A stretch of 64,000 bases of DNA from an uncultured Pirellulales bacterium. GTDB taxonomy: Bacteria; Planctomycetota; Phycisphaerae; Sedimentisphaerales; SM23-30. Made by a program: the position numbers and the translations under genes. The DNA is taken from NCBI GenBank assembly GCA_964537505.1, contig CAZICK010000007.1, positions 311 through 64,310 of the forward strand, in the 5' to 3' direction. Positions 2,501 to 47,055 of the stretch are shown one piece after another. The notes beneath the pieces were generated by a model. It was given only the letters and a program-made list of their open reading frames with translations, was not told the origin of the DNA and searched no databases. Numbering within the stretch: position 1 is the first letter of the stretch; the number at the start of each line of letters is the position of its first letter.

Positions 2501-2535
2501 TCGGACCCGTCGGACAGGTCAGGCAAGTCGGACGG
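2501..2535 (+). repeat. 9-bp-period tandem array filling the mod to four-helix-bundle intergenic space
   Basis: tcggacccg/tcggacagg/tcaggcaag/tcggacgg. Contains the 21-mer gtcggacaggtcaggcaagtc (2509-2529), which recurs exactly at 3102-3122. Confidence 0.85.
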
Positions 2536-2551
2536 ATTGGAAAGGGAAATA

Positions 2552-18960: not shown

Positions 18961-21258
18961 TTGAAGTCTTACAAGGCTAAGACAATTGAAAACGAAAGCC
19001 ATTTAGTATCAGTTCCGAGAACCGGTGAGTTTTTCGGCGAGGGGCTGATTCATGTAATATGGCAGCGTAGATTGATTGTACTGCTGGCCGTGGTCATTAC
19101 GGTCGGAGCGACTCTTGTCTATCTGACCCGTGTCACGCCCGTCTATACGAGCACTTCGCGGCTATATGTGGAGCAAACCGGTCCTGAGATCATCACCGAG
19201 CAGGAAGGGGTTATGACCCAATCGAAGAACTATCTGCACACCCAGAAGGAATTACTAAGATCGACGCCGATTCTTGCTCTCGTCGCAGACGATCCGGCCA
19301 TCAGGCAGATGAAAACATTACGCCGGGTCAGTAATATCATTGCTTATCTGAAAGGGAGACTGAATGTTACCGTCGGCAACAGAGACGACCTTATCAGTGT
19401 TTCGTTCGATAGTCCGTATCCCCAGGAGGCGGCTCAACTGGTCAATGCGGTAGTGGATTCCTACATTACTAATCAATCTACCAGCAAGCGCAGCAGTTCC
19501 AGAGACGTGCTGAAAATACTCTACGAGGGCAAGGTCCGGCGTGATAAAGAATCAGACGAAAAGCTTCGCGCCTTATTGGAGTTTACCCGCGTCAACGGGG
19601 TTATATCTCTGGAAAACAGTGACGACAATATTATCGTGCATCGTCTTGGTCGTCTCTGCGATGTTCTGACGGAAGTCCAACTGGAAATTATGGCGGTCAA
19701 AGCAGATTATATCGCTGTCAACGCGATAATGGGTGACGCTGAGCAAGTTAAACACTTTCTCAATTCCCATCGTGGTCAGGGCGAGTATCTGTCTTCGAGG
19801 AGCCAGTACGATCAACTGGGCAAAGAGATGGATGGGCTTCAGGAGCAATTGAAAACTCTGCTGCAGTTGGGTACTTGCGATCTTCCAGCCGTCCAGACAA
19901 TCGAGATAGAAATTGCTCGACTGAAACGACGTATTACCGAGGAGGAAAACAACCTTATCCAGGGATACCGGGCCTTTCTTGTCCAGCGGTGGACCGCTGC
20001 CCTGCAAAAAGAAGCGGGAATTCGTGATTCTCTGGAAAAGCAGCAGAAGCTGGCATTGGAGCTTAACGCCAAGGCGGCGGAATATGCCATGCTGAAATCG
20101 GACCTCGATCGGTCCAAGAAGTTATGTGATGAGATCGACAATCGCATCAAGAATTCCAACGTAACCGAAGATACCGGCGCTCTTAATATCAGCATTGTGG
20201 AAATAGCGCGTCCCGCAGATCGTGCTACGTTTCCCCAGAAAGATCGCTTTGTGGCGGTATCGTTGGTTTTGGGACTGATGCTGGGGCTGGTTCTGGCGTT
20301 GTTGTGCGACTGGATGGATCATCGGCTTCGCAGCGCCGATGAGATTTCTGTTTTGCTTGGGGTGCCGGTGCTTGGCGCCGTTCCCACCATGTCTGGGAAT
20401 GAATCGAACCTGACCCGAGGCCAAAAGGTATTTCTTGAGCCGGTTTGTCCGGCGGCCGAGGCATATCGTGCGATTCGCACCGCCATTTATTTTGGCGCAG
20501 GCTGGGACAAGGTCAAGACGATTCTGGTTACGTCTGCGTCAGAAGGGGACGGCAAAACCACGGTCATCAGTAATTTGGCTGCGGCCATGGCACAGTCCGG
20601 TCAGCGTACACTTATTATCGACGCGGACTTCCGCAAACCGATGCAGCACAAGATTTTCAAGATTAATCGGCTTGACGGTCTCTCTGGTGTGCTGTCCGGG
20701 AAGTGTCAACTGGATCAGGCCATTGAGTCCACTGTTGTTAGCGGTCTGGATATACTGCCAAGTGGCGTGGTGACAGCCAATCCCTCAGAAATGCTCAGCA
20801 GTGGGGGGTTCATGGGTGTACTTGAAGAAGTTTCTCAAATGTATGATCGGATACTTATCGACTCCCCCCCGGTTCTGAACGTTACCGACTCCTGTATCCT
20901 GGGAGCGATATGCGATGGGGCCGTTTTGGTGGTTCATGCAGAAAAGACCGCCCGCAAGTCCGCTGAGCAGGCCTGTGATAATCTGTTTAGTGTTGGGACA
21001 AATGTACTTGGAGTAGTGGTTAACGATGTGTCCCCTGCCAAGAATCGTTATGGTTATTACGGCAGCTACAAATACTATTCGTACCGCTATGGGGACAGTT
21101 CTACTGGCAGAGAATCACCAGAAGATATGTCTCCAAAACCCGTAGTAATCAAGACGCAAGCGGAAAATATCAATCAGTACCGCGGTCCGTCTCGAAATGA
21201 AAAGAAACTGTCAAGGTCCAGCGGGACGGCAAAAAGCGATACCGACAAGAATGAGTGA
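18961..21258 (+). CDS. Polysaccharide co-polymerase / tyrosine autokinase (Wzc/GumC-like, Wzz domain plus BY-kinase)
   Basis: 765 aa with a TTG start. Two TM segments flank a coiled-coil periplasmic domain. Walker A 'SASEGDGKTTV', 'IIDADFRKP', and a C-terminal tyrosine cluster 'RYGYYGSYKYYSYRYG'. Confidence 0.85.
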   Translation: MKSYKAKTIENESHLVSVPRTGEFFGEGLIHVIWQRRLIVLLAVVITVGATLVYLTRVTPVYTSTSRLYVEQTGPEIITEQEGVMTQSKNYLHTQKELLRSTPILALVADDPAIRQMKTLRRVSNIIAYLKGRLNVTVGNRDDLISVSFDSPYPQEAAQLVNAVVDSYITNQSTSKRSSSRDVLKILYEGKVRRDKESDEKLRALLEFTRVNGVISLENSDDNIIVHRLGRLCDVLTEVQLEIMAVKADYIAVNAIMGDAEQVKHFLNSHRGQGEYLSSRSQYDQLGKEMDGLQEQLKTLLQLGTCDLPAVQTIEIEIARLKRRITEEENNLIQGYRAFLVQRWTAALQKEAGIRDSLEKQQKLALELNAKAAEYAMLKSDLDRSKKLCDEIDNRIKNSNVTEDTGALNISIVEIARPADRATFPQKDRFVAVSLVLGLMLGLVLALLCDWMDHRLRSADEISVLLGVPVLGAVPTMSGNESNLTRGQKVFLEPVCPAAEAYRAIRTAIYFGAGWDKVKTILVTSASEGDGKTTVISNLAAAMAQSGQRTLIIDADFRKPMQHKIFKINRLDGLSGVLSGKCQLDQAIESTVVSGLDILPSGVVTANPSEMLSSGGFMGVLEEVSQMYDRILIDSPPVLNVTDSCILGAICDGAVLVVHAEKTARKSAEQACDNLFSVGTNVLGVVVNDVSPAKNRYGYYGSYKYYSYRYGDSSTGRESPEDMSPKPVVIKTQAENINQYRGPSRNEKKLSRSSGTAKSDTDKNE

Positions 21259-21260
21259 AA

Positions 21261-23834
21261 ATGAATAGTAAAATGTTATCAGAAGACATCGAAAATAATT
21301 TGAAGGCAACCGACATGCCGGTTTCGTCAGAACAAGTATGCCTGTTTGATCGTGTCATCGAAGCTTTGATGATCGGTCTGTTGTTTTTCATGCCTCTTGC
21401 CCTTGGAGTCGTTCATGCCTGGAGCGAGCAGGTAATTATTGTGTTTGCCGGCGCCATGGCGTTTTGTCTGGCTCTTAAGTTTGCTGTCAGGAAAGAAGCC
21501 AAGCCGGTCTGGACGTGGGCATATATACCGATGGTACTGTTTGTCCTTGCGGTTGTTATTCAACTGGCGTCTCTTGGCAGCCGGCTGGTGAGAATCGTCT
21601 CGCCCAATACCGCGGCGATGAAAACGGCTCTCCTGGGCGATCTGCCCAATATGCCCGAGATACGAGATTCAATGACGCTGAGTTTTTATCCCTGGGCGAC
21701 CGGTCGTGAACTGTGCCTGGTCCTGGTGGTGGTGACGGTTTTTATCGTGGTAGTCAACGTTTATCGCAGCGAACAACAGATCAAGCGGTTGCTGGGCGTT
21801 ATTGCCCTGGTCGGCGGCGGCATAGCGGTGCTGGCCCTGGCGGGCGGGCTGTTCGGCAACGGTAAGATTTACTGGTTGATACCTTCAGGTCATAAGGTTA
21901 CATACTCGGGTTCCTTCATCAACCATAGTCATTACGGTCAGTTTATGAATCTTTCAATTGGCGCAGCTTTTGGGTTGTTGTTGGTAAAACTGCAGGAAAA
22001 GTTTTCGCACCACAGGATTAAGTCGCCTATCGCTGTAACGAGATCGGACAAAGGCGGTATGCGAGTTGTCTGGCTTTTGACGATAATGATCATAATCGGC
22101 ATCGCTAGTATTTTCGCTTCGCTGACGCGTGGGGGCATGATTAGTTTTCTGATTGCCGGGGCCTTTACAACGATAGTCTTAACCAGGAATCGCCGACCGA
22201 ACGGTCGAAACTGGATTATGGCTGTGATAGCATTGGGAGCGTTTGTCTGCATACTCTATGTCGGTTTCGAGGCGGTATATGATCGGCTGGCTACCTTACG
22301 GGATGTGGACAAGTACGAAGACCGCTGGGGCGTTGTCAAGGACCTTATACCGTTGGCGTGTCAGTTTCCTCTTTTGGGTACGGGTCTGGGTTCGCTGGAA
22401 ATGGTCTATCAGATATTTGACAGATCGATGAGTTCCAAGCTGATGGTTCATGCGGACAATGAGTACATCCAAACGATAGTAGAGATGGGTATGATCGGCA
22501 TGAATCTGGTGGTAATTTTCGCGGTTATTGTCTGGTACAATTATTACCGCATTGTCAGGCATGTTCGTGTGCCGATCCGCTGGGCGGCCTTTGGTCTGGG
22601 ATTTGGCGTTTTGGCAGTAATGCTTCACAGCTTTAGTGACTATGGTCAACACGTGCCGGCCAATGCGTGTTTGTCGGCGGTGTTCTGCGGATTGATAATC
22701 AACCTGGCCCGTATGGGCCGCGGTCGTCAGGATGTCGGTGTAGATAATGAACCGCAAGTACAAGTTGCTGTCCGAGGCGGTTGGCGTTTATTGCGTGTCG
22801 GTCTGCTTATTAGTGTGGCGGCTGGGTGGAGCTGGTTGCTGGTTGGTGCCGACAAGGCCCGCAGGGCTGAGAGTTGCTGGAAACAGGCACTGCAAATCGA
22901 GAATAAACTTACCGCCGTCAAAACAGATTCCGGGACCGATCAGACGGATCACAAATGGCAGGGCGGCAGTGAAGAATATGCCGCCTTAATCCAGTATGCG
23001 TTAAAGGCCGTTTGTTATCAACCTCATAATGTTAAATACAGATATTGGCTGAACGTTTATCGGTGGCAATCCCTGAGCCGGGAAGATATCAGTTCAACCG
23101 AGTATAACAATGTCACGGCCCAAATCGTTGCCGATTTTCACCACAGCCGTGCATTGTGTGCGACATTCGGCCCGACATATTGTCTGGCCGGTCAGTTGGA
23201 AAAGTATATTTTGGGTTCTCCGGCGGGCGCCAAACATATTCGGCAGGGTTACTATCTGATGGGCAATGACGCTACGGCCTGTTTTACCGCTACGTTGCTG
23301 GATGTAGAGGAAGGTCGCTTTGCGGAATCGCTGAGGAAATTTCACCGCTATCTGCTGTTAAAAGGTTCGTTTGACGATGTGATCGATGTTTACGTTAATC
23401 AAGAAGATCGGCCGGACCTGGCGGTTTCTGCCGCGGGGAATGATGTCCGTCGTCTTATTTGTTTGTCAACGGTTCTGGAACGCAGCGATAAGCATCGTAA
23501 TCTGGCGGAAACGATACAAAAAAAGATTATTGACCTGCTCAAAAGACAATGCGAACAATCGGACGTATCGGCAGCGACGCTGGCTTATCTGGCGCGTGTC
23601 TATTACAAACAGGAAAAATATGATTTGGCAATAGAGTATTTTCGCCAGGCGATTGCCCTTGATTATGGGCAGGTCCAATGGCGAATATCGCTTGCCCGGA
23701 TGTTGGCTGAGGTGAATCGTGTTCCCGAAGCAATCCACGAAGCGCAGGTGTGCCTGCGGCTGGAGCCGCAGATGGAAGCGGCCAAAAAATTATTGGCGAG
23801 TTTGGCCGTTATACCCAACGCACGGACGAATTGA
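21261..23834 (+). CDS. O-antigen ligase/polymerase-family membrane protein (Wzy_C) fused to a large C-terminal TPR domain
   Basis: Polytopic N-terminal 500 aa with 'HADNEYIQTIVEMGMIG' (a Wzy_C-type motif). The C-terminal ~340 aa are TPR-like. Start is ATG 21261 (or GTG 21255, overlapping the Wzc stop). Confidence 0.75.
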   Translation: MNSKMLSEDIENNLKATDMPVSSEQVCLFDRVIEALMIGLLFFMPLALGVVHAWSEQVIIVFAGAMAFCLALKFAVRKEAKPVWTWAYIPMVLFVLAVVIQLASLGSRLVRIVSPNTAAMKTALLGDLPNMPEIRDSMTLSFYPWATGRELCLVLVVVTVFIVVVNVYRSEQQIKRLLGVIALVGGGIAVLALAGGLFGNGKIYWLIPSGHKVTYSGSFINHSHYGQFMNLSIGAAFGLLLVKLQEKFSHHRIKSPIAVTRSDKGGMRVVWLLTIMIIIGIASIFASLTRGGMISFLIAGAFTTIVLTRNRRPNGRNWIMAVIALGAFVCILYVGFEAVYDRLATLRDVDKYEDRWGVVKDLIPLACQFPLLGTGLGSLEMVYQIFDRSMSSKLMVHADNEYIQTIVEMGMIGMNLVVIFAVIVWYNYYRIVRHVRVPIRWAAFGLGFGVLAVMLHSFSDYGQHVPANACLSAVFCGLIINLARMGRGRQDVGVDNEPQVQVAVRGGWRLLRVGLLISVAAGWSWLLVGADKARRAESCWKQALQIENKLTAVKTDSGTDQTDHKWQGGSEEYAALIQYALKAVCYQPHNVKYRYWLNVYRWQSLSREDISSTEYNNVTAQIVADFHHSRALCATFGPTYCLAGQLEKYILGSPAGAKHIRQGYYLMGNDATACFTATLLDVEEGRFAESLRKFHRYLLLKGSFDDVIDVYVNQEDRPDLAVSAAGNDVRRLICLSTVLERSDKHRNLAETIQKKIIDLLKRQCEQSDVSAATLAYLARVYYKQEKYDLAIEYFRQAIALDYGQVQWRISLARMLAEVNRVPEAIHEAQVCLRLEPQMEAAKKLLASLAVIPNARTN

Positions 23835-24101
23835 CCCGGGAAACCGGGATGTTGTTGATGATGTTAAAATTCAGGTTTCGGATGCGGATGTATCGAACCT
23901 GAAAAAATAGCGACGAAGGCCCCGGCTTGTCAGGGTCGCAAAAGCGCCGAGAGCGAAGATGGCCTGACACCGACGGGGACGGAGTTTGCCCCGATCGGCA
24001 TCGTAGATTACAAGTTTTATGTTTATATTTGTTGTGGCCGATCACTGAGACGTGCAGTTTGAGTTTGCAACACATTGTTTTTTTGTAAAGGATGGATTTG
24101 T

Positions 24102-25646
24102 ATGACTACTTATTTGCTTGTTTATTTCGGATCGGTTCTGCTGGCAGCCTTGTGCACTCCTGTGATGATATTTGCCGCCCGCTCACTGAATATCTATGAT
24201 GACATGAATGTTCGCAAGGTGCATGCCAAGGCAATTCCGCGTATCGGCGGCGTAACAATTGTGCTGTCAATGCTGGGGTTGACAATACCAGTTCTTATGC
24301 TGAATAATTTTGTAGGCAAGAGTTTTCGTGAGGTTCAGCTCAAGATAATCGTACTGTTGGCCGGGGGCGTTTTAGTTTTTGCGATGGGGCTGGTCGATGA
24401 TCTGTGTCGTTTGAGGGTTCGCACAAAGTTTCTGTCGCAACTTGTCGTAGCCGTGGCGGTATGTGCCTTCGGCATTCGCATAGAAAGCGTTTCTTTGGTC
24501 GATTGGTTTACGCTTTCTTTCGGCTGGTTTTCCTGGCCGATCACGATTTTATGGATTGTCGGTATTACTAATGCTGTCAACCTGATCGACGGTCTCGATG
24601 GATTGGCGGCCGGGATTTCCGCCATTGCCTGTGGCGTCATTGCGGTGTTTGCCATTTATTCGGGACAACCGGTCATGGCGGTACTGATGCTGGCGTTGCT
24701 GGGCAGTCTTACCGGATTTTTGTTTTTCAATTTTAATCCGGCGAGGATATTTATGGGTGACTGTGGCAGTATGTTTCTGGGTTTTATGTTGGCGACGTCC
24801 AGCGTTCTGTGCGCTACCAAGAGCGCGACGTTTGTGGGCCTGGCCCTTCCGACACTGGCTTTAGGGATACCTATTTTCGATACTCTTTTCAGTATGCTGC
24901 GTCGTTTTCTGGAACGGCGTTCGATTTTCTCTCCGGACCGCAGCCACTTTCACCATCGATTGCTCGATATGGGACTGCATCAACGTCATGTGGTCCTTCT
25001 AATCTATACTTTGACGCTCGTGATTGCGGGCCTGGGAATGTTCATGATGGCTACGCGTAATACCGGTACGATTGTCATATTTATCTGTGCACTGGTTTTG
25101 CTGCTGCTGGTGTTTCGGATATTCGGCGCGGTACGGCTGGGCGAGATCATTAATAAGCTGCAGCACAACCGGAATCTGGTCATTCAAACCAAAGGAGACA
25201 AGCGTGATTTCGATATTGCTCAACTACAGCTTCGTTTGGCCGTCACGTTCGACCAGTGGTGGCATGGAGTTCAAAGTGCCGCTGACCGAATGGAGTGTTC
25301 CTGGGTGATGCTACCTCTTCAAAGTCGCGACGGAAGTAAAAAGACACTGCTGTGGCGCAGCAAGGGGCCGGAACCAGCTCCTGAGAAGCTGCTGGAAATG
25401 ACCTTACCCTTACGCCAGCGACGCGCCAACGAATCGTTGCGGATAGTAGTGGCTGTCAAGGTTAACGGTTCTCTGGAATCGGCCGGCAATCGTGCGGCGC
25501 TGTTCAGCCGTCTTATCGATGAACACAATCTGGAAAACCTGTCCACGGCGGTACCGGATATCAATTGGCTGGAAATTTGGACTGGACAATCAAGTTCCGG
25601 CGATGCCGTCAAACCTTCAAAACGAAAATATATTACCATTAGCTGA
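24102..25646 (+). CDS. Polyprenyl-phosphate hexose/HexNAc-1-phosphate transferase (WecA/MraY family) with a ~170-aa C-terminal extension
   Basis: 'NAVNLIDGLDGLAAG' and 'FMGDCGSMFLGF' motifs in a polytopic membrane domain. The soluble C-terminal tail has no recognisable family. Confidence 0.8.
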   Translation: MTTYLLVYFGSVLLAALCTPVMIFAARSLNIYDDMNVRKVHAKAIPRIGGVTIVLSMLGLTIPVLMLNNFVGKSFREVQLKIIVLLAGGVLVFAMGLVDDLCRLRVRTKFLSQLVVAVAVCAFGIRIESVSLVDWFTLSFGWFSWPITILWIVGITNAVNLIDGLDGLAAGISAIACGVIAVFAIYSGQPVMAVLMLALLGSLTGFLFFNFNPARIFMGDCGSMFLGFMLATSSVLCATKSATFVGLALPTLALGIPIFDTLFSMLRRFLERRSIFSPDRSHFHHRLLDMGLHQRHVVLLIYTLTLVIAGLGMFMMATRNTGTIVIFICALVLLLLVFRIFGAVRLGEIINKLQHNRNLVIQTKGDKRDFDIAQLQLRLAVTFDQWWHGVQSAADRMECSWVMLPLQSRDGSKKTLLWRSKGPEPAPEKLLEMTLPLRQRRANESLRIVVAVKVNGSLESAGNRAALFSRLIDEHNLENLSTAVPDINWLEIWTGQSSSGDAVKPSKRKYITIS

Positions 25647-25720
25647 AAGTAGAAGACTGGTTGTCTGTGCTGAAGACTACGGCAGTTCAAATTGGGCATA
25701 AATATTTTGACGGGGCAAAC

Positions 25721-26554
25721 ATGCCATTAGAAACAGAGTTGAGCCTTGTAAAATCCGCTGCGCGTCTGGCAGGTGAGGCGATTTTGCGAATCGCTCAAGA
25801 AGATTTCGAAACGAATCAAAAAAAAGATCGTAGTTTTGTCACTGCCGCTGATCTGGAGGCAAATCGTATTCTAAAAAATCTGTTGACTGTGGAATTTCCC
25901 GAATATGGATGGCTCTCAGAAGAGACAAGCGATGACCATAAACGGCTGGGTCAGCAGCGTGTCTGGATTGTGGACCCTGTGGACGGTACGCGGGAATTTG
26001 TTAAGAAGATTCCGGAGTTCGCTGTTTCCGTGGCGTTGGTCGAGCAGAACAGGGTGGTTTTGGGTGTAGTGTATAATCCTTCGACAGGAGAGCTTTTCGA
26101 AGCAGTACGAAACAGTGGAGCAAAGCTTAACGGTCAGGTAATTATGTCTGACCATTCGCTGGGTGCCAAACCGATAGTGGAAGCCAGCCGATCGGATCTC
26201 AAAAAGGGGAAGTTCGAGTTTTTGGAAACTTTGATGGAGATCAATCCCTGCGGGTCAATCGCTTATAAGCTGGCCCGGGTGGCTGCCGGCCGGGCCGATG
26301 GGGTGCTCAGCCTTACCCCGAAAAACGAATGGGACATTGCCGCTGGGGTGTTACTGGTCGAAGAGGCGGGCGGAAAGGCGCGGCGGTGCTCCGGTGAGCC
26401 GTTTGTTTTCAATCAGCGACAGACGCTCGTTGACGGTATTATTGCCGCCAGTGCGACCGCATACGATACAATTCGAGAGATAGTCAGGCATCAAGAGATA
26501 ATCGAAACAGTACAAATAGAAACATGTGATAAACCCATTGATGTGGAGATATGA
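25721..26554 (+). CDS. cysQ: 3'(2'),5'-bisphosphate nucleotidase (CysQ / inositol monophosphatase family)
   Basis: 'WIVDPVDGTREF' and 'EWDIAAG' IMPase-family motifs. It sits directly upstream of the PAPS-synthesis genes. Start ATG 25721 preferred over TTG 25661. Confidence 0.7.
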   Translation: MPLETELSLVKSAARLAGEAILRIAQEDFETNQKKDRSFVTAADLEANRILKNLLTVEFPEYGWLSEETSDDHKRLGQQRVWIVDPVDGTREFVKKIPEFAVSVALVEQNRVVLGVVYNPSTGELFEAVRNSGAKLNGQVIMSDHSLGAKPIVEASRSDLKKGKFEFLETLMEINPCGSIAYKLARVAAGRADGVLSLTPKNEWDIAAGVLLVEEAGGKARRCSGEPFVFNQRQTLVDGIIAASATAYDTIREIVRHQEIIETVQIETCDKPIDVEI

Positions 26555-27212
26555 TTTGAATAAGGCAGTGAAGGAAACGAATATTATCTGGCAGTCGAGT
26601 CGGATAAGTCTCGAAGATCGCGAAAGACTGCTCGGTCAGCGAGGCTGCGTTGTCTGGCTGACGGGTTTGTCGGGGTCCGGCAAAAGCACAATTGCCTGTA
26701 TGCTGGAAGAACAGTTGGTACGCTGTGGTCACCCGGCTTGTGTACTGGATGGTGATAATGTTCGCCATGGTCTTAACCGCGATTTGGGTTTTTCGGCTGA
26801 GGATCGTCGTGAAAACATCCGCCGGATCGGAGAAGTAGCAGCTCTGTTCGCGCGGTCAGGTATGATCGCGATTACTTCGTTCATTTCGCCTTACAGAGCT
26901 GGGAGAGATACCGCACGCCAGGCCCTTGATGATGGGATATTCATAGAAATCTACCTCGATACGCCTCTGGAAGAGTGCGAAAAGCGTGATCCAAAAGGGC
27001 TTTACCAAAGGGCACGAGTTGGTGAAATTGTTGAGTTCACCGGTATCGATGCGCCCTACGAACCGCCGAGAGATCCCGAAATGATTCTGCACACCCACAA
27101 GATGTCCCTACAGGAGTGTGTTGAGGCTATCTGGGACTATCTTCTTAAGCGTGGGGTACTTTGCAGATCCGAAGGTCAGGTCAAAACGCAGGAGTTTAGC
27201 CATTGTCGATAG
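26541..27212 (+). CDS. cysC: Adenylyl-sulfate (APS) kinase
   Basis: '[18 protein letters not shown]' P-loop, '[17 protein letters not shown]', 'SFISPYR'. Overlaps the cysQ stop. Confidence 0.9.
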
Positions 27213-27337
27213 AGTTTGAGGAGCCAGAGATGGTTGACGTATCCGATGATTATGCTGCGAATAAGTACGCTACCGGGTCGTGCGATGCTTTACGGTCTTC
27301 CAAGGCGATCCGAGCAACACAACCAGACGAAAAAACA

Positions 27338-28240
27338 ATGCAGTACAATATCTCGCACCTGAAGCAGTTGGAAGCTGAAAGCATCCATATTATGAGGGAA
27401 GTGGCCGGGGAGTTCGAGAACCCTGTGATGCTATACTCGGTAGGAAAAGATTCCTCGGTAATGGTGCGGCTGGCGCAAAAGGCTTTTGCACCAGGGCCGA
27501 TTCCTTTTCCCCTGCTGCACGTTGATACCACTTTTAAGTTTCGTGAAATGATCGAGTTTCGCGACTGGTTTACGCAAGAGGTTAGCGCCCGATTGATTGT
27601 GTGCACTAATCAGGAGGCTCTGGATCGCATCGGTCCGGCGGAAAACTGGACGTGTACGATGTGTGCGAACATGCTGAAAACACAGGCGCTTATCGACGCG
27701 TTAAAGAAATATAATTTTGACGCTGCTTTCGGAGGCGCCAGGCGCGACGAAGAGAAATCCCGAGCCAAGGAAAGGATATTTTCGTTTCGCGACTCGTTTA
27801 TGCAGTGGGATCCTAAAAACCAGCGTCCCGAGTTGTGGAACCTCTATAACACCCGGCATGTTAAAGGTGAATCGTTTCGGATATTCCCGCTTTCCAACTG
27901 GACCGAGCTTGATATATGGCATTACATTTATGTGGAGAAGATACCGATCGTTCCGCTGTATTTCGCGGCCAAGCGACCTGTTATCAAACGGAACGGAATG
28001 TTACTGTTGGCCGGCGAGCTCAATCGGCCCAAACCCGGCGAAATGGTGGAAGAAATGATGGTTCGATTCCGAACGCTCGGCTGTCAGTTGTGTACCGGAG
28101 CCATCCGGTCCGAGGCGACCACCCTTGAAGAGATCATCGAAGAAACCATGCTGACATGTAAAAGCGAACGTGAAAGTCGCGCTGTGGACCAGGATTGTGA
28201 AGGATCGATGGAAGAGAAGAAAAAAGAAGGTTACTTCTAA
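27338..28240 (+). CDS. cysD: Sulfate adenylyltransferase subunit 2
   Basis: '[36 protein letters not shown]' is near-identical in pattern to enterobacterial CysD. Start placed at ATG 27338 to match the CysD N-terminus. Confidence 0.9.
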
Positions 28241-28268
28241 CCAAATTTTCAGTACTTGAAGGTTAATA

Positions 28269-30263
28269 ATGAGTACCGCTACATTACTGTACCGCGATGA
28301 ACGCAAGCGTCAGCTTCGCCGTGGGCCGAGGGTCAGTCTCGACGCCGCGACCTTACTGCGGCGGGATGAGCAGAAAGACCTGCTTCGTTTTGTTACCGCC
28401 GGGAGCGTGGACGACGGGAAAAGCACGCTTATCGGCCGATTACTGTTCGAGGCCAAGGGTATCTACGAAGATCAGCTTGCCGCTGTGCGTGATGCTTCCG
28501 GCAGGAAAGGTTCGACGCAGAGCGAACTGGACCTGGCTTTGATTACCGATGGATTGAAGGCCGAGCGTGAACAGGGTATTACCATAGATGTGGCGTATCG
28601 ATATTTCTCGACGCCCAAAAGGAAGTTTATTATCGCCGATACGCCGGGCCATGAACAATATACCCGCAACATGGCGACCGGGGCATCGACGGCCAATTTG
28701 GCCATTGTTTTGATCGACGCCCAAAAGGGGGTGGTCACTCAATCTAAAAGGCATACTTTTATTGCCTCATTGCTGGGTATCCCTCACATAGTAGTGGCGA
28801 TCAACAAAATGGACCTGGTGGATTATTCACAGGAGGTTTACGAGCGGATATGTGGGGAGTTTCGTAACTTCGCGGCCAAACTTGAGGTTACAGACCTGAC
28901 GTTCATTCCGGTCAGCGCGATGAAAGGCGATAATATTGTCACCGCCGGCGAAAACATGCCCTGGCATCAGGGCGGCACCCTGTTGCACCATTTGGAGACG
29001 GTACACATTGCTTCCGACCGTAACCTGATTGATCTGCGTTTTCCGGTGCAGTATGTGCTGCGGCCGGACCAGACGTTCAGGGGTTATCTGGGAACGATAG
29101 CTTCCGGGACAATCAAGCCGGGAGATGAAGTTATGGTAATCCCTTCTGGGATGCGCAGCCGGGTCAGGACGGTCTTTGGCCCGGACGGCGAACTCGCCGA
29201 GGCTTTTGCGCCACTGGCGGCCGGGATAACAATCGAAGACGAAATCGATATTAGTCGCGGTGATATGCTGGTACATATACATAATGTGCCAAGGGTTGAT
29301 CGGACATTGGATACTATGCTGGTCTGGATGGCTCAAGAACCTATGCAGGTTGGGAAAGAATACTTTATCAAACACGCTACCCGTACTGTTTTGGCAACTG
29401 TTTCGACATTGCGTTATCGGGTGGACGTCAATACGCTGCACCGCGACACAGCCGACGAACTGAAACTTAACGAGATAGGTCGGTGTGTCCTGACGACCAG
29501 TCGGCCGATTGCCCACGATCCGTATTCGCGTAACCGTGCGACCGGTTCATTTATCGTTATAGATCGCATTACGAATAATACGGTGGGCGCCGGGATGATC
29601 CTCGACCGTGAACCGAACGAACTGCAGCCGTCGTCCGAAAAAATTCACAGCGAACCCAAAAGCAAGCATGTCAATCGTCATACGAGCCAAATCACCGTTG
29701 TGGAACGGGCCAGGCTCATGGGGCATGAGCCGATGACTATTTGGCTGACCGGCTTGACCGGTTCGGGCAAAAGTACGATTGCTTACTCGCTGGAACGGCG
29801 GCTTTTCGATGCCGGGCGAAACTGTTATGTGCTGGACGGTGAAAACGCCCGCTTAGGTTTCAGTAAGGACCTGGGTTTCAGTGCCGATGACCGCTGCGAA
29901 AATATCCGACGGGCCGGGGAAGTGGCCCGGCTTCTTAACGATGCAGGACTTATTGCGATCTGTAGTTTTCTTTCGCCTTATAAAGAAGGCCGAAAGCTTG
30001 TCAGGGAAATCATCGGTGCAGATCGTTTCTTTGAGATATACCTTTCGGCTCCGATAGAGGTTTGTCGGCAAAGAGACAACAGCGGTATATACGATTTGGC
30101 CGGCAGCGGCCAAATTAAAAACTTTTCGGGCGTTACCGCTCCCTACGAGGCACCGGATGAGGCGGACCTGATTGTGCCCACCCACGAATGGTCGGTGAGT
30201 GAATGTGTGGAAAAAATCATACACTTTTTCACACAAAAAGGTTTTCGTTTTGATCCGAACTGA
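28269..30263 (+). CDS. cysNC: Bifunctional sulfate adenylyltransferase subunit 1 / APS kinase (CysN-CysC fusion, NodQ-like)
   Basis: GTPase G1 'GSVDDGKSTLIGRLL' and 'DTPGHEQY'. The C-terminal kinase domain has '[15 protein letters not shown]' and 'LDGENARLGFSKDLGFS'. Confidence 0.9.
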   Translation: MSTATLLYRDERKRQLRRGPRVSLDAATLLRRDEQKDLLRFVTAGSVDDGKSTLIGRLLFEAKGIYEDQLAAVRDASGRKGSTQSELDLALITDGLKAEREQGITIDVAYRYFSTPKRKFIIADTPGHEQYTRNMATGASTANLAIVLIDAQKGVVTQSKRHTFIASLLGIPHIVVAINKMDLVDYSQEVYERICGEFRNFAAKLEVTDLTFIPVSAMKGDNIVTAGENMPWHQGGTLLHHLETVHIASDRNLIDLRFPVQYVLRPDQTFRGYLGTIASGTIKPGDEVMVIPSGMRSRVRTVFGPDGELAEAFAPLAAGITIEDEIDISRGDMLVHIHNVPRVDRTLDTMLVWMAQEPMQVGKEYFIKHATRTVLATVSTLRYRVDVNTLHRDTADELKLNEIGRCVLTTSRPIAHDPYSRNRATGSFIVIDRITNNTVGAGMILDREPNELQPSSEKIHSEPKSKHVNRHTSQITVVERARLMGHEPMTIWLTGLTGSGKSTIAYSLERRLFDAGRNCYVLDGENARLGFSKDLGFSADDRCENIRRAGEVARLLNDAGLIAICSFLSPYKEGRKLVREIIGADRFFEIYLSAPIEVCRQRDNSGIYDLAGSGQIKNFSGVTAPYEAPDEADLIVPTHEWSVSECVEKIIHFFTQKGFRFDPN

Positions 30264-30419
30264 CCGTCCGGCAGCAAAATGTGCTGTATGTATATCCATA
30301 CCGAATGAAAATGCCAAGTAGTAAAGGTTATATTTACATAAACTATAAGGCTTTACAATTGGCCCTGTCAGGCGCAGTGACACCCATTGGGTATAGAACC
30401 TTAGGATAGTAAGAACAAT

Positions 30420-32255
30420 ATGAATATTCTGGGAATTTCCGCTTTCTATCACGATAGTGCCGCATCGCTGGTACGCGACGGAGAGATTATCGCTGCCGCT
30501 CAGGAAGAGCGGTTCACCAGGAAAAAACACGATTACGACTTTCCATGCAATGCGGTTAACTATTGTCTGGAAGCCGGCGGGATTTCCGCCGAGGATATTG
30601 ATTATGTTGTGTTCTATGAAAAACCGTTGTTGAAGTTCGAGAGACTGCTGGAAACTTATGTCGGCTATGGTCCGCGCGGGTTTCGGCAGTTTTTGACGGC
30701 CCTTCCGTTGTGGCTACGCCAAAAGCTTCATCTGCCCCGTGAAATGGATAAGGCGCTGAACTACAAATACAAGGGACGTTATGTATTTCCCGAACACCAT
30801 GAATCACATGCGGCCAGTGCCTTTTTTCCTTCGCCTTTTCAAGAAGCCGCTATCCTGACGCTGGATGGCGTGGGCGAATGGACCACCAGCGGCTTTGGGA
30901 CCGGCAGGGACAACAAAATCGAGCTAACGCATACGATACAATTTCCTCATTCGCTGGGACTGCTTTATTCAGCATTTACATACTACAGCGGATTTCGCGT
31001 TAATTCGGGCGAATACAAGCTGATGGGCCTGGCGCCGTACGGCAAACCTAAATACTATGATCTGATAATGGAAAAACTGATCGACTTGAAAGAAGATGGC
31101 TCTTTCCGCCTGAATATGTCGTACTTTGCCTACTGCCACAAAATGGTAATGATTAGTTCCAGGTTCGAAAAGCTGTTTGGCGCACCCGCCCGCAGTTCCG
31201 AGGCGCCCCTGACCGAGCTGTACATGGATGTTGCCGCATCGATCCAGGCGGTTACCGAGGAGATTATGCTCCGGGCTGCTCGATATGTGCATTGTCAAAC
31301 GGGAATGAAGAATCTGGTGCTGGCCGGGGGCGTAGCTTTGAATTGTGTTGGTAACGGCCGAATTTTACGGGAAAGTCCATTCGAGAACATCTGGATTCAG
31401 CCGGGGGCCGGAGACGCCGGCGGGGCGCTGGGGGCGGCACTGTTTGTGTGGTATCAGTTGCTGGACAATGAGCGTAAAGTCGATGGAGTTAATGATCGGC
31501 AGCGGGCATCTCTTCTGGGGCCCGCCTACAGCAACGAGCAAATCAAACAGTTTCTCGATACGGTCAATGCCGAATACCATTCTTTTGCCGATGACCAGCA
31601 ATTGTTCGACGAGGTCTCGGATCTAATCAATCAGGAAAAGGTGATCGGCTGGTTCCAGGGGCGTATGGAATTTGGTCCCCGTGCTCTTGGAAACCGCAGT
31701 ATCATCGGCGATGCCCGTAGCGAAAAAATGCAGTCGGTAATGAACCGCAAAATCAAGTTTCGTGAGTCCTTTCGCCCTTTTGCCCCTTGCGTGTTGCGTG
31801 AGGATGTGGATACTTATTTTCAGATGCGACCGGAAGAGGACAGTCCTTATATGCTGCTGGTGGCGCCGGTTCGGGAAGACAAACGTTTGTCATTGGATGA
31901 GACGGACCAGGCCAAAGGGCTGGATAAACTGAAGACCAGACGCAGTGTCGTGCCGGCTGTTACCCATGTGGATTTTTCGGCGCGGGTACAGACAGTTGAC
32001 CCCAACCGCCATCCGAAAATGCATCGCCTGATGAGTTTGTTTAAGGAGAAGACCGGCTGTTCGGTGATTATCAATACAAGTTTTAACATTCGCGGCGAAC
32101 CGATCGTCTGTTCTCCTGAACATGCATACCGATGCTTTATGGCCACCAATATGGATGTGCTCGTCCTTGAAAACCAACTGCTGTATAAAGAAGAACAACC
32201 GCAGGCCACCCGTCACGAAGTGGACGAATACAAAGCCCAATTCCAGTTGGATTAA
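30420..32255 (+). CDS. Carbamoyltransferase (NodU/CmcH/SxtI family)
   Basis: 'MNILGISAFYHDSAASLVRDGEIIAAAQEERFTRKKHD' is the canonical N-terminus. 611 aa. Confidence 0.88.
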   Translation: MNILGISAFYHDSAASLVRDGEIIAAAQEERFTRKKHDYDFPCNAVNYCLEAGGISAEDIDYVVFYEKPLLKFERLLETYVGYGPRGFRQFLTALPLWLRQKLHLPREMDKALNYKYKGRYVFPEHHESHAASAFFPSPFQEAAILTLDGVGEWTTSGFGTGRDNKIELTHTIQFPHSLGLLYSAFTYYSGFRVNSGEYKLMGLAPYGKPKYYDLIMEKLIDLKEDGSFRLNMSYFAYCHKMVMISSRFEKLFGAPARSSEAPLTELYMDVAASIQAVTEEIMLRAARYVHCQTGMKNLVLAGGVALNCVGNGRILRESPFENIWIQPGAGDAGGALGAALFVWYQLLDNERKVDGVNDRQRASLLGPAYSNEQIKQFLDTVNAEYHSFADDQQLFDEVSDLINQEKVIGWFQGRMEFGPRALGNRSIIGDARSEKMQSVMNRKIKFRESFRPFAPCVLREDVDTYFQMRPEEDSPYMLLVAPVREDKRLSLDETDQAKGLDKLKTRRSVVPAVTHVDFSARVQTVDPNRHPKMHRLMSLFKEKTGCSVIINTSFNIRGEPIVCSPEHAYRCFMATNMDVLVLENQLLYKEEQPQATRHEVDEYKAQFQLD

Positions 32256-33111: not shown

Positions 33112-34443
33112 ATGATGAGGAGATTATTTTCCAGCCAGCTCCGCGTCAATATGGCCAGCGGTGTTGTAACGTCGATCTTAAATATTGCTGTTCTGGGGGT
33201 CGCATATCCGGTTTATTTGAGCTTTTTGGATTATGAGCTTTATGGGATATGGCTGGTTTTAGCTGTTGTACTCAATCTCGCCCAATTAGGAGACCTGGGA
33301 ATTTCCCAGGCTGTTACCAAGTTAGTAGCGGAAGAATATGGTCAAAACAACCTCAGGAACATCGAAAGTTATGTTTTTACCGCCCTGGCTGTCCTTTGTG
33401 TCAGCGGTAGCGTCATATTGCTTGTCATTCTCCGCTTTGACAGGCAGATCATCGGACTGTTCAAGCTGAGCGTGGCAAACGAGGCGATAGCCCTGAAGTT
33501 ATTGCCTTATATCGGCGTTCTGTCGGTGTATGTTTTGATGGTTCAGGTTTTCGGCGCAACACTGTCCGGTCTGGGCCGAATGGATATTACCAATTATTGC
33601 CGGACCCTGAACAAGGTTATAACCGTTGGTATTGCAACGACGCTGCTATGGAAAGGATACGGTATAGAAAGCCTTTTGTTGGGCAACGTATTCGCGTTTA
33701 TAACTATGAATGCCGTGTGTTTGATATTCATTCGTCGAACGGCAAAAATACGGTTTTTGAAAACCGCTCGATTGGATACTCAGCGATTGAAAAAACTCCT
33801 GAATTTCGGCGGAACAGTTTTTGGCAGTTCTATTATGGCAATGCTTTTGGGTCCCTTCAATAAGATGATGCTTTCGCGTTATGCCGGAGTGGAATTGATT
33901 GCGATATATGAAATTGCTTATAACAGTTCCGTTCGGATACGCGCCCTGATTGAATCTATGCTGCGGCCTATTATGCCGGAGATCAGCATTCTGTCGCAAC
34001 GCACTGCCGGTACTACCATCAAACGGATCAGGGCCATAAATCGAAAAAGTATGGCATTAATCATTTTCGGCGGTTTGCCCCTTTTTGCCATACTTCTTCT
34101 GGTGGCGCGACCTTTACTGCAACTATGGCTACAGGAAAAATATAACGAGGCTATTCCAATGGCGTTTCGTCTGATGCTCGTGTGTACTTTTGTCAGTCTG
34201 GTCGGCGTTCCCGCTTTTCATACGCTGCTTGGGCTTGGTAAGGCGAAATGTTATTTGGTTTCCAGCATGATAGTCGCCGGAGGGAATTTTGTTTTGGTGG
34301 GCGCAACGGCTTTGCTGGTCGGACGTGTTTGGTTGAACGGGATTCTGGCAGGTTTGTTTTTTTTGTCCGCTCTTTCAGCTGCCTATTTGATTATTGAGGC
34401 ATCGCGCGAGATCGGCAGGAACCAGTCAGATTGCCATAGATAG
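33112..34443 (+). CDS. Oligosaccharide flippase (Wzx / MOP superfamily)
   Basis: 443 aa, about 12 predicted TM helices, located in a polysaccharide cluster. Confidence 0.7.
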   Translation: MMRRLFSSQLRVNMASGVVTSILNIAVLGVAYPVYLSFLDYELYGIWLVLAVVLNLAQLGDLGISQAVTKLVAEEYGQNNLRNIESYVFTALAVLCVSGSVILLVILRFDRQIIGLFKLSVANEAIALKLLPYIGVLSVYVLMVQVFGATLSGLGRMDITNYCRTLNKVITVGIATTLLWKGYGIESLLLGNVFAFITMNAVCLIFIRRTAKIRFLKTARLDTQRLKKLLNFGGTVFGSSIMAMLLGPFNKMMLSRYAGVELIAIYEIAYNSSVRIRALIESMLRPIMPEISILSQRTAGTTIKRIRAINRKSMALIIFGGLPLFAILLLVARPLLQLWLQEKYNEAIPMAFRLMLVCTFVSLVGVPAFHTLLGLGKAKCYLVSSMIVAGGNFVLVGATALLVGRVWLNGILAGLFFLSALSAAYLIIEASREIGRNQSDCHR

Positions 34444-35589: not shown

Positions 35590-36423
35590 ATGTCCACCGT
35601 ATTCTCTTGGAAACCGGAAAACTTTGATTATCTGTTGGCTTCCTGCGAAGAAGATCCGCTGACCCCGTATATTTTCAAGTATTTTTCCAGGTCCGGCAGG
35701 ATACTCGAGGCCGGGTGTGGCGCAGGCCGGTACGTGAAGTATCTTCACGAAAGGGGCTACGATTGCGCCGGCATCGAATATAACCAGACGACAGTTGAGA
35801 ATGTGAGAGAAAAATGGCCGGAATTGCCGGTTGTTCAGGGTGATGTCGAAAAAATGCCTTACGAAGACGAAACGTTTGACGGGGTAATCTCGATTGGGGT
35901 TGTCGAACATTTTGTGGAAGGGCCGTATCGGCCGCTGGCTGAGATGCTGAGAGTTTTGAAACCCGGCGGAATCGCACTGATCACTATACCATGCCTGAAC
36001 CGGTTGAGAAGACTGAAAGGACCGTTCTGTGGAATCACCCATATAGTATCCGCCAATCCACTTCTAAGGAAAATGCTTGGTAAGAAGCAACTCGAACATC
36101 CCGGCTGGAATTTATATAATCCAAGATACAAATGGCACGTTTTTCCCGAATGGGGAGATTTTTATGAGTATCGTTTTGCTCCTGATGAGTTCAAAAGAAT
36201 TCTCCATGAATCTCAATATGAAATCCTGGAAAGCATACCTCTTTATCAGACCGACGGTCTGTACCACGAATTCGGCCGGTTATTTGCCAAATATGTGCAT
36301 TGCAAATTTGTGGTGTATCCGCACGGCAGAATGATAAACCGGCTATTTTCACAGATTCCATTTTTCCATAACCACATGCATCTTTGCGTTGCCAGGAAGA
36401 AAGATAATGAAAATCACAACTAA
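35590..36423 (+). CDS. Class I SAM-dependent methyltransferase
   Basis: Motif I 'ILEAGCGAGRY', then 'FDGVISIGVVEHF' and 'LKPGGIALI'. Confidence 0.8.
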   Translation: MSTVFSWKPENFDYLLASCEEDPLTPYIFKYFSRSGRILEAGCGAGRYVKYLHERGYDCAGIEYNQTTVENVREKWPELPVVQGDVEKMPYEDETFDGVISIGVVEHFVEGPYRPLAEMLRVLKPGGIALITIPCLNRLRRLKGPFCGITHIVSANPLLRKMLGKKQLEHPGWNLYNPRYKWHVFPEWGDFYEYRFAPDEFKRILHESQYEILESIPLYQTDGLYHEFGRLFAKYVHCKFVVYPHGRMINRLFSQIPFFHNHMHLCVARKKDNENHN

Positions 36424-36443
36424 GACCGGAAAGGATTTGTTCT

Positions 36444-37184
36444 ATGTATAAAGATATCGGGCTGGAGCAGTGGGAAAGTGCCCAAAAGTGGGAAAAAAGT
36501 TTCTGGGATCGATTTGTCAAACAACAGCAGAGTATCGGTAAACTGCGGTTCTTAAAAACGTTTATAAAGAAGTATTTCAAAAGTATTGAGGGTGAAACCT
36601 CTAACTACTGGTGGGAAAAGGCATTTGACGGATATAATTTTGTGCCGCAGGAGTTAGGCAATGTAATTGAGTTTGGCTGTGGTCCGTTCACCAATCTTCG
36701 GCTTATTCTGAAAAACCGCAATGCGCATCATGTCGTGGCGAGTGACCCACTGGCACGACACTATGTTACTTATAACGGCATTCTTGCCAAAAAGTGGAAA
36801 AAACGTCAGTGGCTGATCGACGATCATCCTCTGGAAGAAAAGTTGTATGCCGATGGAGTTTTTGATCTGGCGGTGTGCATCAACGTCCTCGATCATGTGA
36901 GGGACGTTAATCTGTGCCTGGCGAATTTGATCCGAGTTGTCAGGGCGGGAGGGATTCTGATCCTGGGGCAGGAACTGACAAATGACGATGATCTGCGGGC
37001 AACCGCCGAGAAGCGTCAGGCGGCAGGGGATGTAGGCCATCCACACAAATTTTCTACAGAAGAAACTCTCGTCCCTTATCTTGAGGATTTCAAACCGATA
37101 TTACACAAGGTTGTGACACGAGAAAAAGGACGACTTCCGGCGTGGCACTGTGGAACGCTTGTCTTTGCAGGGGAAAAACAATAA
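36444..37184 (+). CDS. Class I SAM-dependent methyltransferase (divergent)
   Basis: 'VIEFGCGPFTNL', 'FDLAVCINVLDHV', 'VRAGGILILG'. Confidence 0.65.
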   Translation: MYKDIGLEQWESAQKWEKSFWDRFVKQQQSIGKLRFLKTFIKKYFKSIEGETSNYWWEKAFDGYNFVPQELGNVIEFGCGPFTNLRLILKNRNAHHVVASDPLARHYVTYNGILAKKWKKRQWLIDDHPLEEKLYADGVFDLAVCINVLDHVRDVNLCLANLIRVVRAGGILILGQELTNDDDLRATAEKRQAAGDVGHPHKFSTEETLVPYLEDFKPILHKVVTREKGRLPAWHCGTLVFAGEKQ

Positions 37185-37219
37185 AGGCAACAATTCAAAG
37201 GAACAGCCATAATCAAAAT

Positions 37220-38677: not shown

Positions 38678-38684
38678 GGGCGAA

Positions 38685-39635: not shown

Positions 39636-39737
39636 GGCGTAGAGGTTCATTTCTTCGTGAGGCGGCAGGGAATGCAGGCCATCTACAAAAACGGATTAAG
39701 CTAATTGTTCGATTATCACCAAGGTGATCAAGTTCTG

Positions 39738-40682: not shown

Positions 40683-40713
40683 GTTAAATGCAAATTCCCA
40701 TACGTTGGAAACT

Positions 40714-42111: not shown

Positions 42112-42132
42112 AACAAAAGGAAAAATACGGTA

Positions 42133-42957: not shown

Positions 42958-43241
42958 AAGAGATTGGAACCGAGGCGCTATGGTTTCCAAATTGAGCGAT
43001 TGGTACACTGCCAGGCTTTTTCATTCGGGTTAACTTTCGCAGTTTTTTTAACCCAATTTCCATTCAACAGGGCCTGTTACGCGAAAACGGATTTTTATAT
43101 GAATTCGATAAATGTTTCACTAACGTATAAAATTATCGTTCTTGGCTCCAAAGGCCCTGTTCTAACTTTGCGTATAAACAATACGCAAGAAAAAGTGCGA
43201 AATCGTACTTCGGTATGGATATGTAACGGCTTAAGAAGGTA

Positions 43242-43958: not shown

Positions 43959-43982
43959 ACCGGCAAGGGAAACAAACTGAAA

Positions 43983-45996: not shown

Positions 45997-46035
45997 GATT
46001 CTATCTCGCGTTTTCTCGTTGAGTTATTGGTCACA

Positions 46036-47040: not shown

Positions 47041-47055
47041 CTGGGTTTAAAACTC

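Follow-up and report, generated by a model that had tools for sequence, protein, structure and literature searches.

A stretch of 64,000 nt (the window) from an uncultured Pirellulales bacterium (GTDB lineage Bacteria; Planctomycetota; Phycisphaerae; Sedimentisphaerales; SM23-30) carries, at 25721-30263 on the + strand, four head-to-tail genes in the order cysQ-like, cysC, cysD and cysN-kinase. We interpret them as a unit that makes 3'-phosphoadenosine 5'-phosphosulfate (PAPS) for the sulfation of a polymer. In this interpretation the stand-alone adenosine 5'-phosphosulfate (APS) kinase CysC is the working kinase, the kinase-like tail of CysN is a pseudo-kinase, and the PAPS also feeds sulfotransferases encoded elsewhere; we put its probability at about 0.65. 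The window covers positions 311-64310 of the forward strand of contig CAZICK010000007.1 in assembly GCA_964537505.1 (G000:C7:311-64310 in our labelling, G000 being the source genome). This assembly comprises 3.79 Mb in 163 contigs and is 93% complete, with 1.2% contamination. The presence of dnaA at 12371-13702 of the window indicates that the locus is chromosomal.

The proposed scheme is built on gene content, motifs, phylogeny, the presence or absence of genes and their co-occurrence; enzyme activities, co-transcription, the sugar that accepts the sulfate and the function of the CysN tail are predictions from these. CysD and the GTPase CysN would convert ATP and sulfate to APS, which the stand-alone CysC would convert to PAPS. 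Before Wzx flips the lipid-linked repeat unit, one of its sugars would be sulfated on the cytoplasmic side by the sulfotransferase encoded at 42133-42957, while the CysQ-like phosphatase would clear the inhibitory by-product 3'-phosphoadenosine 5'-phosphate (PAP). The CysN tail is predicted to be folded and ligand-binding but catalytically crippled, and it most likely has a regulatory or scaffolding role based on the binding of APS or PAPS. The module would supply the tetratricopeptide-repeat (TPR) sulfotransferases encoded elsewhere in the genome as well.

Identity of the four genes

Genes were called from Pfam and NCBIfam profile searches, with equivalog or curated cut-offs as quoted below. 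Domain E-values for the module genes ranged from 1e-48 to 1e-283, which rules out chance matches. CysD (27203-28240, + strand), the small subunit of ATP sulfurylase, contains the PP-loop SVGKDS and scored 466.9 bits with NF003587 (cut-off 195) and 456.1 bits with TIGR02039 (above cut-off). The 664-aa open reading frame (ORF) that follows (28269-30263, + strand) scored 941.9 bits with NF004035 (cut-off 715). Its first part (28269-29660, +) is the GTPase subunit of ATP sulfurylase (TIGR02034, 599.3 bits, cut-off 336.1; GTP_EFTU, 150 bits), with the motifs GSVDDGKS (G1), DTPGH (G3) and NKMD (G4). Thus, motifs, neighbouring genes and scores over the curated cut-offs all identify CysD-CysN as a GTP-dependent ATP sulfurylase. 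The last part (29703-30263, +) is the APS-kinase-like tail, predicted to be a pseudo-kinase, which scored 194.5 bits with PF01583 (cut-off 21.1) and 208.2 bits with TIGR00455 (cut-off 138.7).

The stand-alone CysC (26526-27212, +; alternative ATG start at 26541) is a canonical APS kinase and the predicted true kinase of the module. It scored 229.5 bits with PF01583 and 261.8 bits with TIGR00455, matched Arabidopsis APK1 (3UIE) at E=1.7e-68 and keeps all conserved motifs of solved APS kinases. The first gene (25721-26554, +; alternative TTG start at 25661) encodes a CysQ-like PAP (3',5'-bisphosphate nucleotide) phosphatase of the inositol monophosphatase (IMPase) family (Pfam Inositol_P, 188 bits). 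Its best NCBIfam model within this family is CysQ TIGR01331, with 164.5 bits for an equivalog cut-off of 228.8, which is not reached. The IMPase metal-site motifs EET, DPVDGT and WDIAAG are all present. Orthologues of this protein adjoin PAPS genes in other genomes: in one genome of the taxonomic family of the source (G007) a cysQ-cysC pair includes a 59%-identical counterpart, beside cysC, and in five genomes of another family (f6), where the gene order is cysC-cysD-cysN-tail-cysQ, proteins 40-46% identical are encoded 3' of cysN.

An initial annotation of the window, made from the sequence alone, had described the four genes as contiguous and overlapping. All four ORFs exist at the places given there, and they are contiguous; only cysQ and cysC certainly overlap, by 14-29 nt. 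The overlap of cysC with cysD exists only if the TTG at 27203 is used as start (the other candidates are an ATG at 27230, with GAGGAG 6 nt upstream, and an ATG at 27338, at the onset of CysD homology), and cysD and cysN are separated by a gap of 28 nt. Base composition was considered as a sign of horizontal transfer and found to be uninformative, with a GC fraction of 0.51-0.53 in the module and about 0.49 nearby.

The kinase-like tail of CysN departs from APS kinases at two catalytic residues

Both kinase domains have an intact P-loop, as previously noted: GLSGSGKST in CysC (nt 26664-26690) and GLTGSGKST in the tail (nt 29751-29777). Both also keep the two arginines that bind the phosphosulfate of APS (Arg483 and Arg497 in Mycobacterium tuberculosis; Arg528 and Arg542 in the tail). 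Comparison of the tail with solved APS kinases revealed changes from LDGDN to LDGEN, from RDPKGLY..AR to RDNSGIY..AG and from FTGID to FSGVT. As a result, the position of the catalytic base is occupied by Glu525 (nt 29841-29843) and that of the lid lysine by Ser605 (nt 30081-30083). In M. tuberculosis CysC, the role of catalytic base has been proposed for Asp480, the second Asp of the invariant Leu-Asp-Gly-Asp motif, and the lid residue Lys562 (RDPKGLY) stabilises the transition state; mutagenesis of mouse APS kinase showed that the residue corresponding to Asp480 is essential (PMC4373884). In the stand-alone CysC of the window none of 50 conserved columns is changed, and Asp77 (LDGDN) and Lys157 (lid) are both present. 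Thus, the tail resembles APS kinases in profile score, P-loop and fold and departs from them in the LDGD motif and the lid lysine, both of which CysC retains. The initial annotation had proposed that one of the two kinases may be regulatory or inactive and that an alignment of the catalytic residues should help to decide; judged by these residues, it would be the fused one.

The predicted fold of the tail is intact. Its AlphaFold2 model has a pLDDT of 95.1 and matches the APS-kinase domain of PAPSS1 (2OFX) with a Foldseek TM-score of 0.92 and an rmsd of 1.4 Å. A further match is to fungal ATP sulfurylase (1M8P/1I2D), whose kinase-like, non-catalytic domain superposes on the model with a TM-score of 0.88-0.89.

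To place the two domains among their homologues, we collected the kinase domains of 80 CysN-kinase loci, drawn from many phyla, and computed a tree of 88 domains with IQ-TREE. The tree was split, with support of 98/91, between 37 domains having both catalytic residues, including every stand-alone kinase, and 51 divergent tails. The tail of the window falls inside the divergent group, in a different clade from the tails of Mycobacteriaceae/Nocardiaceae and alphaproteobacteria, while its CysC groups with stand-alone CysCs of Planctomycetota and Kiritimatiellia operons. The divergent type was present in at least eight phyla, among them Planctomycetota, Bacteroidota, Chlorobium, Myxococcota and some Actinomycetota, and in every sampled Pseudomonas (13/13). 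The initial annotation had spoken of a duplicated APS-kinase function; this wording is probably incorrect, since the fused domain is a member of an ancient, divergent clade and not the product of a recent duplication.

Within the divergent group, the base position holds Gln, Glu, Ser or Lys (mostly Gln, Ser or Lys), the serine of FISP is mostly replaced by Ala, and the lid lysine mostly by Gln, Glu or Ser. By contrast with these lost catalytic residues, the P-loop lysine is kept in 51 of 51 tails, Arg80 in 51 of 51 and Arg94 in 48 of 51, and Glu96 and Arg127 are conserved too. This is the pattern expected of a domain that binds a nucleotide and APS or PAPS without phosphoryl transfer.

As an independent test, we searched with PF01583 the whole genomes behind 50 of these loci, 38 with a divergent and 12 with a canonical tail. 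A second domain outscoring the tail was found in 28 of the 38 divergent-tail genomes (29 if a frameshifted copy is counted), versus a further kinase in 2 of the 12 canonical-tail genomes (Fisher p=7e-4, a value inflated by relatedness, though the sample covers many phyla). Most of the second kinases were encoded by ORFs of their own, 190-360 aa long. No such kinase was found in nine divergent-tail genomes, mostly of Bacteroidota but also of a Halopseudomonas, a Pirellula and a Kuenenia. Where a nearby kinase was identified for tails of the LDGE type, to which that of the window belongs, it was canonical and adjacent in 4 of 4 cases (L029, L055, L056, L072). Three of these loci come from Microthrix-like/Acidimicrobiales Actinomycetota (L055:2464-3593, L056:7303-8497, L072:7303-8476), and in them the canonical APS kinase ORF comes immediately after the divergent tail.

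The strongest alternative is that both kinases are active. The fused domain would use Glu525 as base and act as a channelled first-line kinase on nascent APS, with CysC adding capacity for a high PAPS flux during polymer synthesis. Among the members of its clade the window tail is indeed the least diverged (5 changes in 50 conserved columns; the median for the clade is 17), it keeps the P-loop, both APS-binding arginines and the SFLSP serine besides its high PF01583 score and intact predicted fold, and the Asp to Glu change retains a carboxylate. Against this, the lysine that stabilises the transition state is replaced by Ser, most members of the clade that includes the tail have Gln, Ser or Lys at the base position, LDGE-type tails of other phyla likewise have an adjacent canonical kinase, and genomes with canonical tails rarely keep a second one. 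We consider this alternative unlikely on balance, but because the tail is so little diverged and the Asp to Glu change conservative, residual kinase activity retains a modest probability.

The tail fused to CysN is thus probably a relic domain without catalytic function, of a kind that is widespread and still annotated as an active enzyme. No description of an inactive or degenerate CysN-fused kinase was found in the full-text literature searched; a prior mention in the CysDN structure paper (PubMed 16387658) is possible.

By analogy, the closest functional counterpart of the divergent tails would be the allosteric kinase-like domain of fungal ATP sulfurylase. Like the proteins discussed here, the Penicillium chrysogenum enzyme (1I2D, 1M8P) is a sulfate-activating enzyme with a C-terminal non-catalytic APS-kinase fold, in an organism with a separate true APS kinase. 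That C-terminal domain reportedly binds PAPS as an allosteric inhibitor (work of MacRae, Segel, Fisher and co-workers). Unlike the window tail, it is fused to a homo-oligomeric Sat-type sulfurylase and not to the GTPase CysN, which points to independent origins of the two, and its allostery has been demonstrated, whereas that of the CysN tail is predicted only. A more specific and more tentative proposal, which we think somewhat less likely to be right than wrong, is that the divergent CysN tail is a dedicated APS/PAPS-sensing allosteric domain that throttles GTP-driven sulfate activation or passes APS onward, and so, having arisen independently, is a bacterial equivalent of the PAPS-regulated fungal domain. 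Annotation pipelines and NF004035 call such tailed proteins bifunctional CysN/CysC, and if the allosteric proposal is true this database label is wrong for the whole divergent clade. Should the tail be inactive, many genomes, including those of Pseudomonas, are credited with more PAPS-making capacity than they have, and sulfate activation has a regulatory or scaffolding component still to be discovered.

Predicted users of PAPS inside and outside the cluster

The predicted user of PAPS in the same gene cluster is a carbohydrate-type sulfotransferase (42133-42957, +; Sulfotransfer_1, PF00685, 80.6 bits, cut-off 22). The 5'-phosphosulfate-binding and 3'-phosphate-binding motifs that the initial annotation had recognised were both found, as PRSGTTW (PRSGTT at aa 11-16) and RNPIDRAYS (aa 96-104). 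The best matches among solved structures were the bacterial sulfotransferase 3RNL and heparan-sulfate 3-O-sulfotransferases, including HS 3-OST-3A1 (E=5e-20). Since the nucleotide-binding loop begins at residue 11, the protein is predicted to be soluble and cytoplasmic.

Two further sulfotransferase proteins are encoded on contig C9 (16089-24046; L090:7090-15047, - strand), with no PAPS genes nearby. One, of 687 aa, consists of TPRs and one Sulfotransfer_3 domain, and the other, of 1,989 aa, of three tandem TPR-sulfotransferase units; the four domains scored 156-172 bits. In a whole-genome search with PF01583, the only APS kinase domains were those of the window module. Weak matches on C111 and C68 (about 25 bits, confined to the P-loop region) were taken as unrelated P-loop proteins. 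As the sole source of APS kinase in the genome, the module must also supply the four sulfotransferase domains of C9, and, as the cell's PAPS source, it is not strictly private to the polymer.

It could even be argued that PAPS is made chiefly for the C9 proteins, acting on a protein, a peptide or another substrate, and that the location in a polysaccharide cluster is incidental. Four strong Sulfotransfer_3 domains in proteins lacking their own PAPS genes speak for this idea, as does the absence of any APS kinase domain outside the module. We nevertheless find it very unlikely. Polysaccharide genes flank the module on both sides and on the same strand, the cluster includes a carbohydrate-type sulfotransferase, and in a Chlorobium metagenome-assembled genome (MAG) the same operon (cysC-cysD-cysN-tail) stands amid glycosyltransferases and sulfotransferases, being flanked by two sulfotransferases and several GT4 genes. 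Furthermore, use by the C9 proteins and use for a polysaccharide are not mutually exclusive. In a Kiritimatiellia MAG, cysC-cysD-cysN-tail adjoins a Sulfotransfer_2 gene.

A probable role in sulfation rather than assimilation

If the module served sulfate assimilation, a PAPS reductase (CysH) and an assimilatory sulfite reductase should accompany it. PF01507, searched over the whole genome, matched only two genes, both of the cysD type, and a tblastn search with the CysH of a family relative added nothing, so that a hidden cysH was discarded as an explanation. CysI and CysJ were not found in the assembly, the sole sulfite-reductase-like gene being that of a 220-aa NIR_SIR protein on contig C84. 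There was also no PF01747 match, and hence no Sat, in the assembly, and dissimilatory or Sat-based sulfate activation was rejected on this ground. Thus, neither component of assimilatory sulfate reduction was detectable in this 93%-complete assembly. The initial annotation had named a sole cysDNC set with cysH or cysIJ nearby as the finding that would point to assimilation, and this is not what the genome contains.

A second cysD-cysN pair, for which the initial annotation had proposed to search, does exist. It lies on contig C1 and encodes a 268-aa CysD and a 411-aa CysN without kinase tail. We rejected its interpretation as a plain assimilatory copy, as cysH is absent here and in most relatives and the pair is part of a conserved trio. 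This trio (C1:35840-39363; L008:8841-12363) consists of a 465-aa PF01663 phosphodiesterase/nucleotide pyrophosphatase, the short CysD and the short CysN. In 12 family members, an orthologue of the phosphodiesterase (52-76% identical) is encoded directly upstream of a short cysD; in two other families the two genes are no more than about 2 kb apart. Most genomes with the trio have neither cysH nor an APS kinase.

We compared the source with 60 genomes of the same order, including 24 other members of its family (61 genomes with the source). An APS-kinase match was found in 2 of these 24 family genomes and a sulfotransferase in none of them. Among the 61 genomes, 7 had a canonical stand-alone kinase, and a sulfotransferase was present in 6 of these, versus 3 of the 54 others, although 5 of the 6 genomes having both belong to a single lineage (family f6), so that the association amounts to about two independent events. 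In this comparison, APS kinase and sulfotransferases behave as accessory genes that tend to be present together.

The CysN of the window shares 58-64% identity with CysN proteins from distant Planctomycetota, Kiritimatiellia and Myxococcota, but at most 38% with any CysN of the 60 relatives. Because it is nearer to these distant groups than to its relatives, the cysD-cysN segment looks horizontally acquired, unlike the cysQ-cysC pair with its counterpart in the family member G007.

Some side observations were made on the kinase-related genes of other genomes. In relatives from the same order, the assimilatory cysH-cysD-cysN operons of G005, G007, G012, G015, G026 and G046 (e.g. L097:6953-9745, - strand) have a CysN frame of about 600 aa, with room for a C-terminal extension, in which no PF01583 match was found at E<=1e-10, and the CysN tails of family f6 scored only 44-56 bits with this model. 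These extensions and tails may be further-decayed pseudo-kinase tails. In four Planctomycetota (G061, G069, G073, G075), the stand-alone APS kinases matched PF01583 in two pieces, with a break at model position 47/48, which suggests an insertion just after the P-loop helix, or a frameshift in G069.

Taken together, the absence of detectable cysH, Sat and CysIJ, the co-occurrence of kinase and sulfotransferases among relatives, the position of the same operon next to sulfotransferases in the Chlorobium and Kiritimatiellia MAGs and the precedent of a Vibrio cluster (below) support the conclusion that the module serves sulfation rather than assimilation. The earlier proposal of a sulfation role in place of an assimilatory one therefore stands, while the word "dedicated" is too narrow for the only APS kinase of a genome that also encodes the C9 sulfotransferases. 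It is also very unlikely that the module is assimilatory, with a PAPS reductase in the unassembled 7% or of an unrecognised family and the small NIR_SIR protein completing the reduction to sulfide. The incompleteness of the genome, this siroheme-type reductase-like gene and the cysH-cysD-cysN operons of some relatives speak for it. Against it, in relatives cysH lies directly beside cysD and neither cysD of the source genome has such a neighbour, and the lack of any kinase match in 22 of the 24 other family members searched speaks against a housekeeping function. Moreover, the module sits among glycan genes that share their cluster with a sulfotransferase, and a simple reduction flux needs no CysQ.

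Several points weigh against the interpretation as a PAPS unit for polymer sulfation with a pseudo-kinase tail. In an incomplete assembly of 163 contigs, cysH could sit in the missing part. No sulfate transporter of the SulP, DASS, PiT or Sbp type was found in the genome. The CysQ-like protein is under the NCBIfam cut-off for CysQ, and with the C9 proteins a PAPS sink other than the polysaccharide is possible. Judging from its low divergence, its 194.5 bits with PF01583, the kept SFLSP serine and the conservative Asp to Glu change, weak kinase activity of the tail is possible. Finally, the two classes of tail were defined by the very Asp and Lys residues at issue, so that independent support comes only from the tree and from the count of second kinases, in which related genomes are not independent samples.

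Comparison with known systems

PAPS-supply sets inside clusters for sulfated glycans are already known from NodPQ and from a Vibrio cluster. NodP/NodQ of Sinorhizobium meliloti (PMC1780047) and CysD/CysNC of M. tuberculosis (PMC4373884) supply PAPS for sulfated metabolites. Like these, the window encodes a CysD partner and a CysN GTPase with a C-terminal APS-kinase-fold domain, matching NF004035. In NodPQ and CysNC, however, the fused kinase has LDGD and the lid lysine and works, and no separate CysC is needed, whereas here Glu and Ser occupy these positions and the module has a canonical CysC of its own, two genes upstream. The difference from the characterised CysNC and NodQ is thus, as far as residues tell, a CysN tail minus two catalytic residues that is paired with a separate canonical CysC.

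In Vibrio sp. KMM 8419, the cluster for a sulfated capsular polysaccharide has sulfotransferases as well as second copies of cysC, cysN and cysD, a combination that its authors called a hallmark of sulfated-polysaccharide synthesis (PMC11641403). Unlike the window cluster, which is of the Wzx/Wzy type, this cluster is of the Kps/ABC export type; its product is chemically proven to be sulfated, and neither cysQ nor a pseudo-kinase tail was reported for it. The combination of glycosyltransferases, methyltransferases and sulfotransferases for a sulfated exopolymer is shared with Pontiella (PMC7356697) and with the synechan xss cluster of Synechocystis (PMC8205485). Term searches of these papers gave no mention of PAPS-supply genes, in contrast to the full supply and recycling set inside the window cluster.

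Pontiella (Kiritimatiellales, PVC group) is described as both degrading sulfated glycans, with many sulfatases, and making them (PMC7356697). About 27 sulfatase genes (PF00884) are spread over the contigs of the source genome, and a sulfatase-modifying enzyme of the formylglycine-generating (FGE) type is encoded at 63441-63998 (- strand) of the window. The organism probably degrades sulfated glycans and makes one too, as Pontiella does.

The surrounding polysaccharide cluster

In the ORF map, 33 genes run on one strand (17221-58488), the PAPS module among them. The Pfam matches are those of a Wzx/Wzy-type system: Glycos_transf_4, Polysacc_synt/MatE, two Wzy_C proteins, Wzz with AAA_31 and GNVR, and Poly_export with SLBB. 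Upstream of the module, all on the + strand, are genes for a Wza-like protein (17698-18888; Poly_export/SLBB), a Wzc-like protein (18961-21258; Wzz, AAA_31 and GNVR), a Wzy_C/TPR protein (21255-23834) and, directly upstream of cysQ, an initiating polyprenyl-phosphate sugar-phosphate transferase of the WecA/MraY family (24075-25646; Glycos_transf_4, 145 bits). Directly downstream of cysN is the gene for an O-carbamoyltransferase of the NodU/CmcH type (30420-32255, +; Carbam_trans_N, 337.8 bits; Carbam_trans_C, 236.5 bits). The remaining co-directional cluster (33112-58488, +) begins with the Wzx flippase (33112-34443, +; Polysacc_synt/MatE) and includes the second Wzy_C protein (40666-42111, +), glycosyltransferases, at least six methyltransferases, an MBOAT protein, a B12-radical SAM (S-adenosylmethionine) enzyme, a GDP-mannose dehydratase and epimerases.

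No terminator-like site was found in the gap between cysQ and the upstream transferase or in 30264-30419 by a promoter/terminator scan, which yields consensus-level matches and was used solely for these two flanking gaps. The four module genes are probably co-transcribed within the Wzx/Wzy-type cluster.

Decorating enzymes are unusually dense for a single glycan cluster: besides the carbamoyltransferase, at least six SAM methyltransferases, the MBOAT protein and the B12-radical SAM enzyme are encoded within 35590-50217. The product predicted from the locus is an exopolysaccharide that carries sulfate and many other decorations (methyl, carbamoyl and acyl groups) and is possibly rich in fucose. 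The bacterium, uncultured and PVC-like, would join the short list of bacterial sulfated-polysaccharide producers as a candidate with a full PAPS supply within the cluster.

A Type III restriction-modification pair, consisting of an N6_N4_Mtase protein and a ResIII protein that has an endonuclease domain, was observed at one end of the window (419-5826). The two genes are separated by a small gene of the 23S-IVS family, which encodes a four-helix bundle.

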